Shown here one piece after another: positions 5,904 through 63,549 of a stretch of DNA of 64,000 nucleotides. Below the pieces are notes generated by a model. That model was not told where the DNA came from. It was given only the letters and a program-made list of their open reading frames with translations, and searched no databases. How positions within the stretch are numbered: position 1 is the first letter of the stretch; the number at the start of each line of letters is the position of its first letter. The stretch is from Bacilli bacterium (GTDB lineage Bacteria > Bacillota_I > Bacilli_A > RF39 > UBA660): positions 15,565 to 79,564 of the forward strand of contig JAFQES010000008.1 in NCBI GenBank assembly GCA_017398945.1. Reading direction: 5' to 3'. The position numbers and the translations under genes were made by a program.

Positions 5904-6191
5904 ATGAACGAAATAAAATTTCATAGTTTAAATGAATTATATAAAAGATTATTACCGGCTTTAAAAAGCAAAAAGAAAACCTTACATCAAAAAGGTTATA
6001 CTTATATATATGAAGAAGATATATGGAATTGCTGTAAGGCCTCTTGGTCTAAAAGAACTAATTTAGAATTATATAATATGGTAGATGATATTTTAAATAC
6101 CGATGATGAAGTATTTGATAAATATTTAAAAGATTATTTTAAAGGCAGTCACCGCCGATTAAGTAAGGATGAGATACATAGTGAGAACTGA
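5904..6191 (+). CDS. ComN/YrzD-like post-transcriptional regulator family protein
   Basis: 95 aa. The pattern LNELYKRLLPAL...EEDIWNCCKASWSK...LELYNMVDDIL and its position next to the spoVB-like gene match the B. subtilis comN (yrzD) arrangement. Confidence 0.55.
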   Translation: MNEIKFHSLNELYKRLLPALKSKKKTLHQKGYTYIYEEDIWNCCKASWSKRTNLELYNMVDDILNTDDEVFDKYLKDYFKGSHRRLSKDEIHSEN

Positions 6192-8337
6192 CATTTTAAC
6201 AATTGATGATTTATTAAAATTAGTAGACAAAAACTTTCAAAGAAATAATAGTTTAAAAAGGATCAAAAAAGCCTATGATTTTGCTTTAGAAAATCATGCT
6301 GGAAAAACTAGATTAACTAAAGATCCTTACATAATGCATCCATTAAATGTTGCTTATATATTAGCCAATTTAAATGTTGATGAAACAACGATCGTTGCAG
6401 CATTAATTCACGAAACAATAAATAATGGTAATGCTACAGAAGAAGAGATAGAAAATTTATTTGGCATTGAAGTTAAAAATATTGTAAGCATAATTTCGAA
6501 AATAAATAAACTAGAAGCAACAGATGATTCTGATTCAGCATCAATATATTTGCGCAAAGTATTAGTTGGTATGGCAGAAGATGTCAGAATTTTATATGTA
6601 AAATTAGCTGATCGTTTGCACAATATGAGAACAATCTGGGCCGTTCGAAAAGAAAAACAAAAACATAAAGCAAATGAAACTATGAATGTGTTGGTGCCAA
6701 TTGCTCATCGACTTGGAATAAATTCAATTAAAAGTGAATTAGAAAATATATGTTTACGCATTTTAAAACCTGATGTCTACCACGATATTGAAGAAAAATT
6801 AAATGAATCATTCCCTGATTCAAAAATTATTTTAAATGATATGCAAGATGCTATAACAAATATTTTAATTGAAAATGATATTAAATTCGAAATCAAAAGT
6901 CGGGTGAAAAGTGTCTATAGCGTTTACAATAAACTAAATAATGGTAAGAAGTGGAATAATATATATGACTTTTTAGCTTTAAGAATTATTTTAGAAAAAG
7001 AAAGCGATTGCTATTTAGCAGTTGGTTTAATTCATTCTAAATTTAGACCCATGCCAAATCGTTTTAAAGATTATATAGCTATGCCCAAAGAAAACATGTA
7101 TCAATCATTACATACGACAATATTTGGAGCAGATGGACATTTATTCGAAGTTCAATTAAGAACATACGAAATGGACGAGTTTGCCGAAAAAGGTATGGCT
7201 TCTCATTGGTCATATAAAGAAAAAGGCACCAAAAAAGCTCAAAATATTATGGAACAAAAACTAGAAATATTTAGGGCAGTTATCGAAAATAATCGCGATG
7301 AAGAAAATGATAGCATCTTTGCTAAAAATATTTCGGGAGAATTTTTATCAGATTTAATATATGTTTTCACCCCTAAAGGGGATGTTGTAGAACTTCCTAA
7401 AGGAGCAACTCCAATTGACTTTGCTTATCGTATCCATTCAAACGTTGGTTCTAAAATGGTTGGCGCTATCGTAAATGATGTAATGGTTCCATTAACATAT
7501 GAACTACAAGATAATGATATAGTTACCATAAAAACTAGTAATAGTGCAAAACCAAATAAAGATTGGTTAAACATAGTTAAAACATCCCAAGCCAAGAATA
7601 AAATTAAGGCTTATTTTAGCAAACAAGATAAAGCTATGTATATTGAAAGAGGAAAACAATATCTAGAAAAAGAACTGCGCAAAAGAAAACTTTCGATAGC
7701 CGAAACTTTAAGTGACGAAAACATCGAAAAAATATTAAAAGACTTAAAACTTAAAGATCTAAATGATATTTATTTTTCAATTGGATCAGTAAGATACACA
7801 GCCGGCTATATAATTAACTTAACAACTGAAGACAAGCATTCAACCCAAGAAGCATTAATTGAAAAGTTACAAGATAATAAGAAAAATATTGTTTCTAATC
7901 ACAAAAGTGAAATAATTGTTGCTGGAGCTAATGATATTATTGTTAATTTCGCTAAGTGCTGTAATCCGATCAAAGGAGACAATATTGTTGGATATATTAC
8001 TAAAAACCAAGGAATTATCATTCATAAAGAGGGTTGTAAAAATATAGAAAATAAACAAGATCGATTTGTTGATGTTATTTGGAATGAATCTAGTGACAAT
8101 TTATTTATAAGAAAATTACATGTAAAAATAAATGACAATAAAAATCACATGATGGATATTTTTACCTTAGCGGCGAAAAGAAACTTTACAATTGTTTCAA
8201 TCGATACTAAAGAAAGCTATGAAAATAATTTGCCAAACATTAACTACGAAATAAGCATAAAAATCAAAAATATTGCTGAATATAATACATTTGTAAAAGA
8301 TTTAAATAACCAAACATATATAACGGAGGTTTACTGA
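6169..8337 (+). CDS. relA: Long RelA/SpoT homologue with an intact (p)ppGpp synthetase and a degenerate hydrolase motif (RelA-like)
   Basis: Synthetase motifs are present: RVKSVYSVYNK, DFLALRII, DYIAMPKENMYQSLHTT, EVQLRTYEMDEFAEKGMASHWSYKE. A TGS domain (IYVFTPKGDVVELPKGATPIDFAYRIHS), a CC zinc-finger region and a C-terminal ACT/RRM-like domain are also present. The hydrolase HDVxEDT motif reads HETINNG. The start may be ATG 6169 or GTG 6181. Confidence 0.9.
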   Translation: MRYIVRTDILTIDDLLKLVDKNFQRNNSLKRIKKAYDFALENHAGKTRLTKDPYIMHPLNVAYILANLNVDETTIVAALIHETINNGNATEEEIENLFGIEVKNIVSIISKINKLEATDDSDSASIYLRKVLVGMAEDVRILYVKLADRLHNMRTIWAVRKEKQKHKANETMNVLVPIAHRLGINSIKSELENICLRILKPDVYHDIEEKLNESFPDSKIILNDMQDAITNILIENDIKFEIKSRVKSVYSVYNKLNNGKKWNNIYDFLALRIILEKESDCYLAVGLIHSKFRPMPNRFKDYIAMPKENMYQSLHTTIFGADGHLFEVQLRTYEMDEFAEKGMASHWSYKEKGTKKAQNIMEQKLEIFRAVIENNRDEENDSIFAKNISGEFLSDLIYVFTPKGDVVELPKGATPIDFAYRIHSNVGSKMVGAIVNDVMVPLTYELQDNDIVTIKTSNSAKPNKDWLNIVKTSQAKNKIKAYFSKQDKAMYIERGKQYLEKELRKRKLSIAETLSDENIEKILKDLKLKDLNDIYFSIGSVRYTAGYIINLTTEDKHSTQEALIEKLQDNKKNIVSNHKSEIIVAGANDIIVNFAKCCNPIKGDNIVGYITKNQGIIIHKEGCKNIENKQDRFVDVIWNESSDNLFIRKLHVKINDNKNHMMDIFTLAAKRNFTIVSIDTKESYENNLPNINYEISIKIKNIAEYNTFVKDLNNQTYITEVY

Positions 8338-8771
8338 TGAAAGTAGTAGTCCAAAGATGTGAAAAAGCTAGCGTTTCAGTTGATGATAAATTAATTAATG
8401 CCATCGAAAACGGCTTAATGATTTTAGTTGGATTTACCGAAGGGGACACCGAAAAAGAGATTGATTATATGGTCAAAAAAGTTGCTAATTTAAGAATATT
8501 TGATGATGAAAATGGCATTATGAATAAATCTGTTTTAGACATAAAAGGGAGCATTCTATCAATAAGTCAATTTACTTTATATGGTGATGCTTCCAAAGGA
8601 AATAGACCTAGTTATATCAAAGCTCTAAATGGAGAAAAAGCAACAAAATTATATGATTTATTTAATGAAAAACTAAATGAACTAGCTCCAACTAAAACAG
8701 GAGTATTTGGAGCTGAAATGAAAATTGATTTTATAAATGATGGTCCAATAACTATTATTTTAGAAAAATAA
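8337..8771 (+). CDS. dtd: D-aminoacyl-tRNA deacylase
   Basis: MKVVVQR...ASV, SQFTLYGD..KGNRPS, GVFGAEMKIDFINDGPIT. ATGA overlap with the relA stop. Confidence 0.92.
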   Translation: MKVVVQRCEKASVSVDDKLINAIENGLMILVGFTEGDTEKEIDYMVKKVANLRIFDDENGIMNKSVLDIKGSILSISQFTLYGDASKGNRPSYIKALNGEKATKLYDLFNEKLNELAPTKTGVFGAEMKIDFINDGPITIILEK

Positions 8772-8828
8772 TTGAAAGAACATTTTATATTTGTTAATAT
8801 AACAAATAAATTCAGGAGGTTTTTTAAA

Positions 8829-10658
8829 ATGGAAAAATCTAAAACTAATATACTTGTAATTTCAGAACACGAAAAGGATTATAACGCAATTAAAGCTATT
8901 GGTTACACTCACGTAGATTATATTCCCTCATCTGTAGTAGCAACTAAATACTTTAGCGGTAAAAATCGTAACGCATTAAATCAATACCATTATATATTTG
9001 TCAATCATAATATAATAGATAACAATAACTACGGAAACTATGACCACTATAAAAACGAATTTATTGATTTGTTATTTTGCAGAGGATGTCTAGTAATTGA
9101 TTATTTATCACATGAAGATAGCGATGAGATACGTGCTTCTGTTTATACAGGAGCAAAAAAATCATTATTAAATTATAATTTATATCATAATATGAAAGAT
9201 TTATTTGCAAAGTTTGATGAACTCAATTGGAAACACAAGAAAAAAGAGTATCAACCAATAAATTATATAAATCAAAAGAAACTACCTTTATGTCCCTCTT
9301 TAAAAAACATTAAAGTATTAATGTTAATACCTTATCCAGACAAAATAATTGATAAATTAAAATCATTTGCTAATGGGATTGGTATAAAAAAACTTGAAAT
9401 AGTTGAAGACCATAATTGCGCATTTAATGAAAATTACGTCACTAAATTAGCTGATTATGATATTATTTTGGCAAGTAGTCTATATTCAAGCAAAATACTT
9501 AGTTTAGCTAAAGAAGCATCTATTCAATGTCAAGCCTCTGGTAAACAATTACTTATATTACAAACATATAGCGATGTTCTTTATTATAACCAATCAAATA
9601 TACATTATAAAATAATAAAACCAAACCCAGAAAAAATAGAAGACATTTATCAAGAATGTAAATTAGGAATAACAAAAGAAGAAATAGATTTTTATAAATG
9701 GTTATTAGAAACATCGGCATATAGATATATTGCTAAAAGAAATATTATTTGTCCAAGAGGCGAAGTCTTAGAACACAATTTATATAGCGAAAAAAAATAT
9801 GAAACCATATATCAAAATGAGGTTTCTGAAAAAGAAAGAGAATTACAACTTTTTCAAGAAGTATACAGATTTATAAATCGTTATTTTACCGATAAAAACA
9901 TAGACAAAAACAAATTAAGATTGAAAAACTTAAACTTAAAAGAAACGAAATATACAAAAGATTATACAACAATATATGTATATCATGCTTTGTTTGAAAC
10001 TAAAAACAAAGAAAAATACGAAATACTAATTGATACAAAATGTGGTTATAACGGTCGTGAAATTGCTAACACCAATGCAGTTGAATTACAAATCATTAAA
10101 CCATATGACGCTAAATTTAAACCACGCAAATTAAACTTTTCTCAAATCTGGTCTCGTTATGGAGTACATGCCGATTGGGCTAATCCCGAAGATATAACTA
10201 TATTAACTGAATTGTTGCAAGTTCTAAAGCAAGAATTAAAGCCAACATTTAACAAAATAGATGCTGAACAAACTCAAATCATTAATAGAAAATACACTTA
10301 TAGTGAAATAATAAATTCAGTAAAAGAGTATCTAAAACTAGAAAATACTTCCCAAATTTATATTCCTGGTCAAATAAAAATTGAACGCAGAAAAATTGAT
10401 TATAAAATAACCTGCTATATTAACGAAAATCCTGTATCAATTATGATAATTAATAAAGAAAATTGTAGTACTCAATTTGAATTAAGTGTTTTAAATAAAA
10501 ACGGCAATTTAGCTCCAAGTCGAGTAATAAAATTAGATGAGAAACCTCCGTATAACGAGAAAGAATTAACGACACTAGAAGCAATTAAGAAAAAATTGGA
10601 ATTTCATTTAAATAAAAGCAAAGATTGTCAAAAAAGAAATAGAAAGAAGCCGGAATAA
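8829..10658 (+). CDS. Hypothetical 609-aa protein with two N-terminal flavodoxin/receiver-like modules and two beta-rich C-terminal repeats
   Basis: AGGAGG SD 9 nt before ATG 8829. Beta-alpha patterns NILVISEHEKDYNAIKAIGY and IKVLMLIPYPDKIIDKLKSF lack a phospho-acceptor Asp pair. No catalytic motif recognised. The next gene starts 1 nt after the stop. Confidence 0.7.
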   Translation: MEKSKTNILVISEHEKDYNAIKAIGYTHVDYIPSSVVATKYFSGKNRNALNQYHYIFVNHNIIDNNNYGNYDHYKNEFIDLLFCRGCLVIDYLSHEDSDEIRASVYTGAKKSLLNYNLYHNMKDLFAKFDELNWKHKKKEYQPINYINQKKLPLCPSLKNIKVLMLIPYPDKIIDKLKSFANGIGIKKLEIVEDHNCAFNENYVTKLADYDIILASSLYSSKILSLAKEASIQCQASGKQLLILQTYSDVLYYNQSNIHYKIIKPNPEKIEDIYQECKLGITKEEIDFYKWLLETSAYRYIAKRNIICPRGEVLEHNLYSEKKYETIYQNEVSEKERELQLFQEVYRFINRYFTDKNIDKNKLRLKNLNLKETKYTKDYTTIYVYHALFETKNKEKYEILIDTKCGYNGREIANTNAVELQIIKPYDAKFKPRKLNFSQIWSRYGVHADWANPEDITILTELLQVLKQELKPTFNKIDAEQTQIINRKYTYSEIINSVKEYLKLENTSQIYIPGQIKIERRKIDYKITCYINENPVSIMIINKENCSTQFELSVLNKNGNLAPSRVIKLDEKPPYNEKELTTLEAIKKKLEFHLNKSKDCQKRNRKKPE

Positions 10659-10659
10659 T

Positions 10660-11337
10660 ATGGCTGATGTAGTAAAAATTGAAGATCGTTCATTATGCGC
10701 TGAATGCGGCGGACAATGTTGCAAAAAATGTGGTTGTGATTTATTTATATCTGATATTGAAAAACCAGAATATGATTATATTAATAAGTTATTAGATAGC
10801 GGACGAGTTTCAATTGTATCAAGAATATATGTTTTGCCGTTAAAAAATGGCTCATACGCTATAAATCCATTTTTACATTTAAGAACTAGAAATATTGATA
10901 GAGAGGCAATAGATTTATTTTCTTTGAAAAAAACATGTGCATCATTAGAAGATGATGGTTGTTTTTGGGATTTATACCACCGACCAAGCGGAGCAACTCA
11001 TATTAAACCATCAAAAAATGCAGCTGGAGAGTTTACATGCAAGCCTACATTAGATCACAAAGCAGAAATAAAAAAATGGGAAAAATACCAAAAACTACTA
11101 GCTAAAATTGTTAAAGAAAGAACCGGTAACACAGTATATGAACAACTAAGATTAGATGTTATAAAAACATTTAATGACATATTAAATAGAAATTTTGAAG
11201 GAGTTAGCAAAGAAGCTTTAGAAGAGTTCGAAGAAATATTTCCAGTATTAAAATCAAGATATGCTGATGAATATAAAATCGCTCAAGAAACTTATAAAAA
11301 ACAGAACCCATTGCTTCTTAGAATTCATCGTCAATAA
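10660..11337 (+). CDS. CxxCxxCC-motif (YkgJ/UPF0153-like) zinc/iron-chelating domain protein with a helical C-terminal extension
   Basis: CAECGGQCCKKCGC near the N-terminus and CASLEDDGCFWDLYHRPSG downstream. This matches the two-part Cys pattern of the YkgJ family. Confidence 0.7.
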   Translation: MADVVKIEDRSLCAECGGQCCKKCGCDLFISDIEKPEYDYINKLLDSGRVSIVSRIYVLPLKNGSYAINPFLHLRTRNIDREAIDLFSLKKTCASLEDDGCFWDLYHRPSGATHIKPSKNAAGEFTCKPTLDHKAEIKKWEKYQKLLAKIVKERTGNTVYEQLRLDVIKTFNDILNRNFEGVSKEALEEFEEIFPVLKSRYADEYKIAQETYKKQNPLLLRIHRQ

Positions 11338-60318: not shown

Positions 60319-61287
60319 TTATAATATTTGTAAATCTTGAAGTTCTCTTTCCGTTTTTTCTTCCCAACTAGAAGCTTGCACCTCTGCTATATGTCTACAT
60401 CCCAGAATTAACATCAAAACTCTTGATTGACCAATACCACCACCAATTGTGTATGGTAATTCTTTATTAATAATTTTTTGATGATATGGTAATATTAATC
60501 TATCCATTGCATCAGCTTTTTCTAATTGAGCTAATAATGATTTTTCATCAACTCGAATTCCCATAGATGAGATTTCAACTGCTTTATCAATAATTTCATC
60601 ATATATTAATAAATCTCCATTCAACTCCCAGTCATCATAATCAGGACTTCGTAAATCATGAGGAATACCAGATTGTAATTTTTCTCCTACCCCAATTATA
60701 AAAACGGCTTTCTTATTTTTACAAATAATATCTTCACGTTCTTTTGGGGTTTTATCAGGATATATATCTTCTAATTCCTGACTATCAATAAAATAAACAT
60801 CAGAAGGTAAATCTATATACGAAAAACCATATTTTTCTTTAATTAAACTTACTGTTTCTTTTAAAGCATCATATATAGCTCTTATTGTTTCTTTTAAATA
60901 ATCTATTGTTCGGTCTTCTTTTAGTATAACTTTTTCCCAATCCCATTGTTCAACATACAAAGAGTGTAAAGCATCTACAACTTCATCTTTTCTGATTGCT
61001 TTCATGTCCGTATACAAACCACGATTAATTGGAAACGCATATTTTCCTAATGCTTCTCTTTTCCATTTTGCTAACGAATGAACTATTTCAAATGACTCAT
61101 CGCCTTTTGTAAAGCCAACAGCTTTTTCTACCCCTGTTAAACCATCCTGTAATCCAGAAGAAGTTTTAACAAACAACGGGCTTCCTACTTTTATTAAACT
61201 TAACTTTGCTTCAATTTTTTCTTCAAAACATTTTTTTATTTCAGCAATTAATTTTATTTTTTCTAAATAACTTATATCTTTTTTCAT
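60319..61287 (-). CDS. asnA: Aspartate--ammonia ligase (asparagine synthetase A)
   Basis: L.L..V..PLFV...SGLQD.L.G.EK.V.F, VHSLAKWKR, RKDE..D..HS.YV.QWDWE, GIGQSR..M. Start taken at M25 (MKKDISY). Confidence 0.88.
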   Translation of the reverse strand: MKKDISYLEKIKLIAEIKKCFEEKIEAKLSLIKVGSPLFVKTSSGLQDGLTGVEKAVGFTKGDESFEIVHSLAKWKREALGKYAFPINRGLYTDMKAIRKDEVVDALHSLYVEQWDWEKVILKEDRTIDYLKETIRAIYDALKETVSLIKEKYGFSYIDLPSDVYFIDSQELEDIYPDKTPKEREDIICKNKKAVFIIGVGEKLQSGIPHDLRSPDYDDWELNGDLLIYDEIIDKAVEISSMGIRVDEKSLLAQLEKADAMDRLILPYHQKIINKELPYTIGGGIGQSRVLMLILGCRHIAEVQASSWEEKTERELQDLQIL

Positions 61288-61390
61288 TATAATCCTTCTT
61301 TCTCTTAATTTTAATTTACGTATAAAACGTCTCTTAATTTTATGAAACATCACAAACAATTATTATCTTCTTTCAAAAAATCACACCCTT

Positions 61391-61669
61391 AAAAAAACCC
61401 GTTTCATCCCAAACATAAGGACGAATACGGGTATTTCGCGGTGCCACCTTAATTTATTACTAAAGGTTATTATACCTTTTATTTTAGTAATCTCTTTTGC
61501 TCTATTAAGCATTAGCAATATGATAACGGTTTGCATCCGAACTAGTCTACTAAGATAATTCCTTTCGGCAGTTTGCTCTAAGGTGTTCTTTCACAATATC
61601 CCTATAATCAGTTCACACTATACCTGATTCACTCGTATAAGCAATAAGGTTACTTTTCCTCTTCATCGC
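61391..61669 (-). promoter_or_regulatory. T-box riboswitch leader (Asn specifier) controlling asnA
   Basis: Minus strand: GCGATGAAGAGG...AGTA stem-I base. GAA-AG-AAC-A specifier context (AAC = plus 61585-61587). T-box core AAGGTGGCACCGCG (61450-61437). Terminator ACCCGTATTCGTCC...GGATGAAACGGGTTTTTTT (61433-61391). Confidence 0.85.
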
Positions 61670-61675
61670 AAAAAC

Positions 61676-61724: not shown

Positions 61725-63191
61725 CTATTTACCAATATATTGCTTAATCTTTTTTCTAGCATAGGATGTTTGAGCATAAGAAAGCCATTCTTCTGAACAT
61801 GTAGTATTATCGTCTTCTACTATAACTGTAACTCGATCATCATTTTGCAATCTTTCAAACTTGTTTGCTTCAATACCATTAATTAATACTCGATCCATTT
61901 TAGCCCCAATATCACTATGAATTTTAAAAGCGAAATCTATTGCTGTAGCATCTACTGGTAATTCGACTATATATCCATTAGGAGTCTTAACATAAATATT
62001 ATTTGCCAATAATTCATCTTTTACTTTTGAAGCAAAATCTTTTGTCCCATCATTTGCCTCTCTAAGTTTTAATAGTTCCTCGTAGAACTGTAATGATTGG
62101 AATTTATCTTGCATTATTTGACTTGCTTTTCCAGGTTCTAAAATCCAATAAGCAGATAAGCCATAAGAAGCAATTGTTGCCATATCAAAAGTTTTAGGTT
62201 GGAACTGAATCAAGTGGCCAAAGGATGAATTTACGGTCGTATGAATAGATTGATACATATTAGTTTTAGGATTAAAAATAAAATCTTTAAAATATTTATT
62301 TTCCGGTTTATAACACATATGAACAGCCATTAAAGCTTTATAACACTCCTCTATTTTTTTTACCAACACATTAATAACCATTATGTCATGAATCTCATCA
62401 AACTCAATTCCCTTTGCTAATTTCAAATGAATACCAAAAATATCTTTGAATTTTATACGCAGCTGACTATCTACTCCTAGATTAAAAAGTTTATTTTGCA
62501 CTGTTATTTTCATCGCATCTAAGTCGTTAAAATGAGTTTCCTTTAAAAACTCTCTTTTTTGATAAATATCATTGTATTCGGAAGGTTTTAAATATTTAAA
62601 AGATAAATCCTGCAATTCCTTCATGATTCGGTAAGCCCCAATTTTTCCCGCTATTCTTGAATATATTTCTAAAGTTTCTAAAGCCTTTTCTTTTTGTTTA
62701 AATGAATTTTTATAATTTAGCGTTCTCATATTATGTAATCGATCCGCTAACTTTATAATAAGAATTCTAATATCCACCAAACAACTTTTTAATAATTTTT
62801 CTTCATTAGCAGCTTTTTCTTCTTCTTTTGAAGTAAAAGAAATATTATCTATTTTAGTTACACCTTGAACCAAGGTTAAAACAGTTTGACCAAAAAGCTT
62901 TAAAATTTCTTCTTCTAAAGCAGACGTATCTTCTAAAACATCATGTAACAAAGCTGCACAAATTGTATTACTATCGGCATGCATCTGCGCCAAAATTAAG
63001 GCAACATTTAAAGGATGAGTTATAAAAGGCTCTCCACTATTACGTTTTTGGCCAAAATGATATCCATTTGCATAATTATATGCTTTTATAATACGTTCTT
63101 CATCAATAGGCATATAACTATTTGTTTTATCAATCAATTGTTTTAATAATTCTGCTCCTACAATATCGTAGCTATTTACATTACAATTCAT
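61725..63191 (-). CDS. Second long RelA/SpoT homologue: intact HD hydrolase, degenerate synthetase, TGS domain, C-terminally truncated (SpoT-like, hydrolase-only)
   Basis: Hydrolase motifs are intact: GQKRNSGEPFITHPLNVALILA, LLHDVLEDT, LADRLHNMRT. The synthetase positions are altered: DIMVINVLV (Arg lost), DFIFNPKTNMYQSIHTT, and IQFQPKT in place of EVQ(I/L)RT, with YW.ILE in place of HW.YKE. TGS: IYVKTPNGYIVELPVDATAIDFAFKIHS. Ends shortly after the TGS domain (488 aa). Confidence 0.85.
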   Translation of the reverse strand: MNCNVNSYDIVGAELLKQLIDKTNSYMPIDEERIIKAYNYANGYHFGQKRNSGEPFITHPLNVALILAQMHADSNTICAALLHDVLEDTSALEEEILKLFGQTVLTLVQGVTKIDNISFTSKEEEKAANEEKLLKSCLVDIRILIIKLADRLHNMRTLNYKNSFKQKEKALETLEIYSRIAGKIGAYRIMKELQDLSFKYLKPSEYNDIYQKREFLKETHFNDLDAMKITVQNKLFNLGVDSQLRIKFKDIFGIHLKLAKGIEFDEIHDIMVINVLVKKIEECYKALMAVHMCYKPENKYFKDFIFNPKTNMYQSIHTTVNSSFGHLIQFQPKTFDMATIASYGLSAYWILEPGKASQIMQDKFQSLQFYEELLKLREANDGTKDFASKVKDELLANNIYVKTPNGYIVELPVDATAIDFAFKIHSDIGAKMDRVLINGIEANKFERLQNDDRVTVIVEDDNTTCSEEWLSYAQTSYARKKIKQYIGK

Positions 63192-63264
63192 CCCAAACCA
63201 CCACTTTTTATTTAATTAACTATATAATAATACGTTTTAAAAAAAAACACAAATAAAAAAGCGC

Positions 63265-63549
63265 TTAGTTTTCGTAAACGCTTACTTTCTTCTTATCTCT
63301 TCCTAATCTTTCAAAACGAACTGTTCCACTAACTTTAGCAAATAATGTATGATCTTTGCCCATTCCAACATTAGTTCCTGGGTAAATTTTAGTACCTCTT
63401 TGACGATATATAATAGAACCAGCAGTAACTACTTGACCATCGCTTGCTTTAGCACCTAAACGACGTCCACGAGAGTCACGACCATTATCGGTTGAAGATT
63501 GACCTTTTTTATGAGCGAATAATTGAATATTCAAAATCATAAATTTCAT
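63265..63549 (-). CDS. rpmA: 50S ribosomal protein L27 with a cleavable N-terminal extension
   Basis: [55 protein letters not shown]. Confidence 0.95.

Follow-up and report, generated by a model that had tools for sequence, protein, structure and literature searches.

A full-length Rel and a truncated paralogue

We analysed a 64,000-nucleotide stretch of DNA (the window) from an uncultured Bacilli bacterium of the GTDB order RF39 (assembly GCA_017398945.1, contig JAFQES010000008.1, positions 15,565 to 79,564, forward strand), which encodes two long RelA/SpoT homologues (RSH). In Firmicutes, the classic arrangement is a single bifunctional Rel accompanied by small synthetases. In this window, the full-length long RSH gene rel (6169-8337, + strand) encodes 722 aa and is predicted to specify a Rel[hS]. 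Our analysis indicates that this open reading frame (ORF) is likely to be a synthetase-competent, hydrolase-dead Rel. An alternative GTG start at 6181 (+) would give a protein of 718 aa, the form of the protein-cluster entry. The second gene (61725-63191, - strand) encodes a truncated long-RSH paralogue of 488 aa, a predicted Rel[Hs] hydrolase. The GC content of the window is 27% and both genes are read with the standard bacterial code. We considered and rejected an alternative genetic code, as table 11 yields full-length proteins, with TGA terminating rel and TAG terminating the paralogue.

The Rel protein carries the Pfam domains HD_4 (residues 35-184; 6271-6720), RelA_SpoT (residues 244-353; 6898-7227), TGS (residues 397-456; 7357-7536), RelA_AH_RIS (residues 468-619; 7570-8025) and ACT_4 (residues 646-722; 8104-8334), all on the + strand. 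The HD_4 domain is the candidate pseudo-hydrolase. The ACT/RRM match scored 21.7 bits, under the 27-bit cut-off. Against the NCBIfam model TIGR00691 the protein scored 648.7 bits (cut-off 499.2) over model positions 1-681 of 687, and this alignment reached residue 717, covering the sub-threshold ACT_4 region. The domain order and the TIGR00691 score indicate that 6169-8337 is a complete long RSH. The TGS domain has its conserved His in DFAYRIHSNVG (417-427), and the helical and RIS/zinc-finger region has the motif AKCCNP...HKEGC (7951-8037, +), which extends 12 nt beyond the end of the RelA_AH_RIS match. The features of ribosome-type activation (TGS His and zinc-finger CC...H...C) are thus kept at the sequence level, and both motifs are invariant over 51 aligned sequences. 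By contrast, the paralogue consists of HD_4, a weaker RelA_SpoT match and TGS. It ends after TGS without AH, RIS or ACT domains, unlike the full-length SpoT architecture, and its TIGR00691 score of 469.5 bits falls under the cut-off.

Catalytic sites of the two proteins

The original prediction had quoted LIHETINNG and GKTRLTKDPY as degenerate hydrolase motifs. Both are present in the Rel protein, the former at residues 79-87. Motifs were mapped by phmmer alignment to the solved-structure chains 1vj7 (RelSeq), 6yxa (RelBsu) and 6s2t (RelTt). AALIHETINNG aligned without gaps to GFLHDVVEDT of RelSeq and RelBsu and GLLHDTLEDC of RelTt, placing H81, E82, N85 and N86 of Rel at RelSeq H77, D78, E81 and D82 (RelTt H76, D77, E80 and D81). 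As had been anticipated, the three substitutions in this H81-E82-T-I-N85-N86 motif (6409-6426, +; codons CAC GAA ACA ATA AAT AAT), D78E, E81N and D82N in RelSeq numbering, affect precisely the Asp that ligates Mn and the catalytic Glu-Asp pair. No intact HD..ED motif was found elsewhere in the N-domain. The hydrolase catalytic set of a bifunctional Rel[HS] is thus incomplete, with H53, H77 and D144 kept.

The rest of the pocket is less altered. At a constant offset of +4 to RelSeq (H57=H53, H81=H77, D148=D144, N152=N148), the substrate- and metal-binding residues R48, Y54 and H57 (RelSeq R44, Y50 and H53; 6310-6339, +) are retained. In the same segment K45 is replaced by Leu, G47 by Lys and E48 by Asp, so that GEPY reads KDPY. 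The segment A147-D148-R149-L-H-N152-M-R-T155 (6607-6633, +), with the equivalents of D144, R145, N148 and T151, is intact. An AlphaFold2 model of residues 1-390 reached a predicted local distance difference test (pLDDT) score of 86.9, mostly above 93 in the HD blocks. Its best Protein Data Bank (PDB) matches were Rel N-terminal domains, led by 7oiw (S. aureus Rel) with a template modelling (TM) score of 0.92 and a root-mean-square deviation of 2.5 Å, and it matched 1vj7 with TM 0.87-0.88. This superposition argues that the HD fold has been retained.

With its Mn-ligand Asp replaced by Glu and both catalytic carboxylates by Asn, the HD domain of Rel should be unable to hydrolyse (p)ppGpp. In RelTt, each of E80Q, D81N and D81E abrogates hydrolysis, as do GD or EV changes in the HDxxxED motif of RelSeq (bioRxiv 10.1101/670703). 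Substitution of Y51, E82, D83 or N147 in the Acinetobacter baumannii SpoT (SpoTAb) also gives an HD-inactive enzyme (PMC9974481). We infer loss of hydrolysis in Rel from these homologous RelTt and SpoTAb mutants. The protein might still be bifunctional, with Glu82 binding the metal and other residues activating water to allow slow hydrolysis or the use of another substrate, as the metal ligands H57, H81 and D148 and a carboxylate at position 82 remain and a second hydrolase could not be detected in some relatives that share the motif. We consider this improbable, as single changes of RelTt (E80Q, D81N or D81E) or SpoTAb (E82 or D83) kill hydrolysis and here three positions have changed at once; moreover, all genomes of the genus have kept a hydrolase-type paralogue.

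The synthetase site is intact, as originally predicted. All five motifs were found: RVKSVYSVYNK (245-255), DFLALRII, DYIAMPKENMYQSLHTT, EVQLRT and AEKGMASHWSYKE. The residues present are R245, K247, K255, D267, R272, K300, Y302, K307, Y311, H315, E327, Q329 and R331, with RFKD at 298-301. The Rel[HS] synthetase catalytic set in RelSeq numbering (R241, K243, K251, D264, R269, K297, K304, Y308, H312, E323 and Q325) is complete, and these catalytic residues were invariant in a 51-sequence alignment. Every test run on the sequence (the replaced HD residues, the published mutants at equivalent positions, the kept synthetase, TGS and zinc-finger residues, and the reciprocal pattern of the paralogue described below) favours the prediction of a synthetase-only Rel paired with a hydrolase-only paralogue. 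The pipeline annotation 'bifunctional (p)ppGpp synthetase/hydrolase' is probably wrong for this clade.

The paralogue shows the opposite pattern. Its HD site is canonical (GQKRNSGEPF, THP, LLHDVLEDT and KLADRLHNMRT), with an intact H83-D84-V-L-E87-D88 at 62928-62945 (-). At the synthetase catalytic Glu site (RelSeq E323) the codon CAG at 62205-62207 (-) encodes Q329, in the context IQFQPKT. The reciprocal partner described in the original prediction therefore exists, with HDxxED intact and a putatively dead synthetase bearing E323Q, R269N and R241K; D264 and Q325 are kept. In E. coli SpoT, E319Q serves as the standard synthetase-dead allele (for example, PMC6085430). It is thus probably the 488-aa paralogue, judged by these residues, that carries out (p)ppGpp breakdown.

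Conservation, phylogeny and gene context

We checked whether the altered HD motif was shared by relatives. Among the 120 best cluster representatives (58-100% identity to Rel), 119 carry [LIV]HE[TV]xN[NH], i.e. HE..N[N/H]. The representatives were drawn from ENA, NCBI, JGI and Logan assemblies, many of them independent. At the DNA level, the pattern L-H-E-x-x-N-N-G was found in 31 of 301 genomes, an even sample of the order (almost all one family, 127 genera). About 28 of these matches are credible and 3 look like chance. The matches were concentrated in few genera, reaching 12/15 in one genus. As the pattern misses Ile or Val before the His, the count is a lower bound; it missed the source genome and G002 themselves, which have Ile, as well as NH variants (genomes are given as G numbers, G000 being the source assembly, and loci extracted from them as L numbers). 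The source genome is a draft in 35 contigs, so the motif could in principle be an artefact of sequencing or assembly, or a mutation confined to one strain in a metagenome-assembled genome. This has practically no chance of being correct and is already refuted by the presence of the motif in 119/120 representatives, four other species of the genus and about 28/301 genomes.

Conservation across the protein was similar in its two catalytic domains. In 37 hS sequences non-redundant at 85% identity, mean column conservation was 0.80 for HD, 0.83 for SYNTH and 0.71 for the C-terminal half. R48, L49, H57, H81, E82, N85, K145, D148, R149, N152 and T155 were invariant in this set, so the replacement residues E82 and N85 are themselves fixed. 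The pocket residues stayed invariant after addition of bifunctional (HS) relatives. Only the catalytic carboxylates have been replaced, and the pattern looks like that of a pseudo-enzyme domain under purifying selection.

These data bear on a refinement of the synthetase-only reading, which we regard as tentative. The pseudo-HD pocket may act as a substrate trap, still binding Mn2+ and (p)ppGpp, and so work as a non-cleaving product sensor that would switch the synthetase off (or on) via HD-SYNTH allostery. In a specific form of this idea, no less doubtful, bound product would hold Rel in a closed, 'hydrolase-ON / synthetase-OFF' state, amounting to product feedback on the ribosome-bound synthetase. 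The catalytic carboxylates alone have changed, to amides or a longer carboxylate, the type of substitution used for substrate traps. The HD domain is as conserved as SYNTH, E82 and N85 are invariant, and R48, H57, H81, K145, D148, R149, N152 and T155 are invariant both in hS and in combined hS and HS sequences. E. coli RelA, by contrast, has lost the whole motif (FPLADA), and its pseudo-HD matches that of Rel at 54.7 bits against 142 bits for RelSeq. Conservation may nevertheless be structural, as the conserved residues lie on helices that also form the domain core and the HD-SYNTH interface. Moreover, K45 is Leu in all members, and the sister lineages G015, G018, G020 and G011 have let D144 or N148 decay too. 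If true, regulation by such a sensor pocket would have no described parallel among pseudo-enzyme functions of RelA, where the pocket has been lost altogether.

Next, the origin of the synthetase-only Rel and its partner was studied. Every long RSH was extracted from 40 relatives. All five genomes of the genus (5/5, including four other species) carry the same pair of rel and truncated paralogue, and truncated paralogues also occur in G005, G008, G012, G019, G020 and G025. The catalytic Glu is lost in 11/11 truncated paralogues (10 Gln, 1 Asn) and R269 is kept in 0/11. In a tree of the HD-SYNTH-TGS region (IQ-TREE, LG+C20; no Bacillus RshC sequence included), Rel fell within the Bacilli Rels. 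The 11 truncated copies formed a single clade (100/99), whose sister group (95/84) comprised every full-length Rel of the order. This clade and the full-length Rels of the order grouped together (100/99), apart from other Bacilli Rels. Placing both paralogues on an RSH tree, as had been proposed, thus points to a single duplication, old and lineage-specific, that took place no later than the base of the order, and implies that the synthetase-dead state is ancestral to the short copy. Long branches in the truncated copies of G008, G019 and G025 and in the second full-length copy of G026, together with a shared AT-rich composition, are caveats to this tree. Horizontal acquisition of the truncated copy was rejected, as it is sister to the order's own Rel with the two together at 100/99; the long branches and AT-richness advise caution here too.

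The full-length Rels that have lost the ED pair comprise a clade of 15 rows (98/91) and G009. When the HD domain is left out of the tree, 2-3 changes account for this state; the source genome belongs to an HE subclade of 11 rows with 100/99 support. The Rel HD is degenerate in 16 of the 26 genomes sampled from the order, and another protein with an intact HDxxED accompanies it in 13 of the 16. This protein is the truncated paralogue in 9 genomes and a fusion of a small alarmone hydrolase (SAH) domain to AAA_28 in three (G011, G015 and G022); in G009 it is an SAH that stands alone. A second intact-HDxxED protein was found in 3/10 genomes whose Rel HD is intact.

The fusions, of about 450 aa, occur in relatives without the truncated paralogue and join an SAH-type HD_4 domain (LHDVVEDT intact) to an AAA_28 P-loop domain (GTPRTGKT). 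They lie on the - strand at L057 2053-3405 (G022), L060 2014-3384 (G011), L058 2086-3402 (G024) and L059 2007-3965 (G015), the last bearing an extra N-terminal HD domain. In G018, G021, G023, G086, G093, G098 and G271, with assemblies 90-96% complete, the Rel is degenerate and no L-H-D-x-x-E-D motif or second HD_4 protein was found; this pattern is noisy, with frequent matches in the reversed-pattern control, and serves as a rough indicator only. G026, a 2.1 Mb genome from another Bacilli family, encodes a normal 712-aa Rel with HDxxED intact and a second full-length long RSH of 683 aa (L044 1442-3490 (+) and L016). This second copy has lost HD, ED and DRLHN from its HD domain and has SYNTH, TGS and ACT intact. 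It would seem to be a further Rel[hS] paralogue of Bacilli that arose independently.

We also checked the source genome (1.21 Mb, 35 contigs, 95% complete) for other alarmone enzymes. The PF04607 and PF13328 profiles matched only Rel and the 488-aa paralogue, and no RelP/RelQ-type small synthetase was found by profile search in this 95%-complete assembly. The PF13328 inventory of HD-type hydrolases is incomplete, however, as it missed an Aph1-like protein. This third HD candidate, a 171-aa ORF beside serS outside the window (contig C1 48449-48961 (-); 1234-1749 (-) on the extracted locus L066), was found by the L-H-D-x-x-E-D pattern. It carries LLHDVIEDT and KLADITHNM and matches PDB 7smg (Aph1) with E 2.7e-14. 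The equivalents of the Aph1 specificity residues D24 and R119 are kept, but the first metal His aligns to Tyr. Related proteins are sporadic among relatives (G002, G010, G014, G028 and G038). Aph1 is a (p)ppApp-specific hydrolase that does not hydrolyse ppGpp (PMC10083569). Given this specificity and the sporadic occurrence, we read the Aph1-like protein as a putative accessory (p)ppApp hydrolase rather than the ppGpp hydrolase. Ten NUDIX matches were also found in the genome.

The original prediction had assigned rel to an apt-relA-dtd position, which is half right. The dtd gene (D-Tyr-tRNA deacylase; 8337-8771, +) does lie downstream, its start overlapping the rel stop by 1 nt (TGATG), but apt is not upstream. 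Instead, a gene for a comN-like post-transcriptional regulator (5904-6191, +) overlaps the rel start, preceded by a divergent (-) spoVB/murJ-like gene. The order spoVB(-)/comN-like/rel/dtd recurs in the relatives checked, with comN-like and dtd as conserved neighbours. Directly 3' of dtd are a 628-aa ORF without a Pfam match (8772-10658, +) and a Cys-rich 225-aa ORF (10660-11337, +). A homologue named 'Mycoplasma sp. CAG:776' is 61% identical to the Rel protein.

The paralogue sits after rpmA, prp and a tentatively assigned rplU, and before asnA-obg. A T-box leader (RF00230, 103 bits; 61414-61675, -) precedes the asnA-like gene (60319-61359), as do a promoter-like TTGACA-17-TATATT at 61704-61676 and a terminator-like hairpin at 61425-61403. 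The asnA gene thus has its own promoter-like site and T-box leader, which argues that the paralogue is not co-transcribed with asnA-obg. A further terminator-like hairpin with a T-run (63259-63283, -) overlaps the rpmA end; the paralogue starts 68 nt further downstream. Promoter and terminator scans around both RSH genes gave no more sites than shuffled sequence, and only the rpmA hairpin and the asnA T-box are usable from them. Transcription of the paralogue may come by read-through from the rplU-prp-rpmA operon or from its own promoter.

The genome is small, a small alarmone synthetase was not found in its inventory and some sister lineages show further decay of the HD site. The stringent system might on this account be vestigial, with rel heading for loss and both activities weak or absent. 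We consider this very improbable. An intact rel reading frame is present in all 26 genomes sampled from the order. The motifs of the synthetase do not vary, conservation of the domains stays at 0.71-0.83 down to 58% identity, and the operon context and translational coupling to dtd are conserved.

Several observations weigh against a simple division of labour between a synthetase-only Rel and a hydrolase paralogue. We looked for a published mutant directly equivalent to D78E and found none. H53, H77, D144, R44, Y50 and N148 are all retained in Rel, making residual or altered catalysis formally possible. The association of a degenerate HD with a second hydrolase is descriptive only, because the tree offers just 1-2 independent contrasts. 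Moreover, no second hydrolase was found in G018, G021 and G023, whose Rel HD is degenerate, and a simple division of labour leaves these genomes unexplained. Finally, given the Aph1-like protein and the ten NUDIX matches, the paralogue need not be the sole route of alarmone removal.

Proposed division of labour and its parallels

From the observed residues, domain architecture, conservation, phylogeny and genome inventory, we infer the following enzyme activities and their regulation. Rel is the vertically inherited Rel of a gut Bacilli lineage with a genome of about 1.2 Mb and 27% GC, and would now act as a monofunctional (p)ppGpp synthetase, Rel[hS]. It would bind the ribosome and deacylated A-site tRNA via its TGS, helical, zinc-finger and ACT/RRM domains, and transfer pyrophosphate from ATP to GTP or GDP at the intact synthetase site. 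Its HD domain may be kept as a regulatory pseudo-enzyme module, folded but non-hydrolysing. Degradation of (p)ppGpp would be delegated to the 488-aa paralogue, with its intact hydrolase, dead synthetase and no ribosome-binding C-terminus. The two genes would descend from the single old duplication, no younger than the base of the order, with each copy then losing the activity that the other kept.

The original prediction had likened the pair to the gammaproteobacterial RelA/SpoT split. The split into a maker and a breaker agrees with our results; Rel is RelA-like in its dead catalytic residues only. Like E. coli and other gammaproteobacterial RelA[hS], Rel is a ribosome-type long RSH of full length, in which the synthetase is intact and the HD domain has been kept but is apparently dead, and it is accompanied by a second long RSH that would hydrolyse. 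It is not, however, an orthologue of RelA. It scored 429 bits against NF008124 (cut-off 728) and the tree nests it in the Bacilli Rels (100/99). RelA has lost the whole of HDxxED, whereas Rel keeps H77, the pocket residues and normal loop lengths; its HD domain scores 142 bits against RelSeq and 55 bits against RelA, and the PDB structures that it matches best are of Rel rather than RelA. Hallmarks of RelA are an extended alpha6-alpha7 H-loop (PMC8012599) and a longer Core (PMC8012599, PMC9974481). The median H-loop and Core segments are 23 and 48 residues in hS sequences against 23 and 50 in HS relatives, so extended loops are absent, and RelA requires insertions relative to Rel in the alignment. 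In RelA, EXDD reportedly replaces RXKD before the G-loop, a finding ascribed to Sajish et al. 2009. Rel has R298-F-K-D301, not EXDD.

Complete subfunctionalisation has been described only in Moraxellaceae (Atkinson et al. 2011, PMC3153485), where the A. baumannii SpoT is hydrolase-only (Tamman et al., PMC9974481). The RelA[hS]/SpoT[Hs] pair of this family (7qpr; PMC9974481) resembles the present one in its reciprocal subfunctionalisation and in keeping the dead domains as pseudo-domains. In its logic the partner of Rel, a putative [Hs] enzyme truncated at the C-terminus, is nearer to the SpoT[Hs] of Moraxellaceae than to the bifunctional SpoT of E. coli. The origins are nevertheless independent, in Bacilli here and in Gammaproteobacteria there. 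SpoTAb is a full-length protein whose hydrolysis must be activated by its C-terminal domains (PMC9974481), whereas the partner in this genome ends after TGS. SpoTAb has also lost the Mg-binding Asp and Gln, whereas the partner keeps D264 and Q325 and has E323Q, R269N and R241K instead.

The closest relatives of Rel are the bifunctional Firmicute Rel[HS] proteins (1vj7, 6yxa and 7oiw), with which it shares orthologous lineage, domain order, loop lengths, 38-39% identity and dtd downstream. Its model matched 8acu (RelBsu, N-terminal domains only), 1vj7 and 7oiw with TM 0.84-0.92; for 6yxa, whose chain reaches well beyond the modelled N-terminal domains, TM was 0.58. Rel differs from these proteins in D78E, E81N, D82N, K45L and the change of GEPY to KDPY. 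The typical Bacilli set is Rel[HS] with RelP/RelQ (Atkinson et al. 2011, PMC3153485), whereas RelP/RelQ are absent from the inventory of this genome.

Other duplicated long RSHs were compared by description. RshC[HS], from six Bacillus strains, is likewise a second long RSH truncated in the helical domain, with HD-SYNTH-TGS as in the partner (PMC3153485). It has an ambiguous, possibly horizontal origin and is [HS], whereas the partner is a within-order duplicate and a predicted [Hs] enzyme; RshC stands outside our tree. RshB[HS] of Bacteroidetes is a Rel duplicate with a strongly diverged, RelA-like HD, so such splits recur (PMC3153485). Unlike in RshB and RshC, it is here the canonical full-length copy that has lost the hydrolase residues. 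The engineered RelTt mutants E80Q, D81N and D81E (bioRxiv 10.1101/670703) find a natural counterpart in the amide-for-carboxylate changes of Rel at the same two positions. In Rel, however, they form a natural, fixed, clade-wide state combined with D78E.

Literature searches, with subscription-only papers outside their coverage, did not turn up an account of the Rel[hS]/[Hs] pair of this clade. To our knowledge, the maker/breaker split is otherwise known from Beta- and Gammaproteobacteria. Its principle is thus already known; the lineage, the identity of the dead copy and the mode of loss differ here. What appears new, judged by sequence, is that the putatively dead copy is the canonical, syntenic, full-length Rel, that loss came by point changes of carboxylates with the pocket, loops and RXKD unchanged, and that the partner lacks a ribosome-binding or regulatory C-terminus. 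A clade of uncultured small-genome gut Bacilli has probably reached a RelA/SpoT-like split independently. This would add a second natural experiment, independent of the first, on the reasons why a bifunctional stringent factor splits. It allows us to ask which features of RelA (H-loop, long Core and EXDD) monofunctionality needs and which are lineage accidents, and it offers a natural E-to-N and D-to-N variant for studies of HD-SYNTH allostery.

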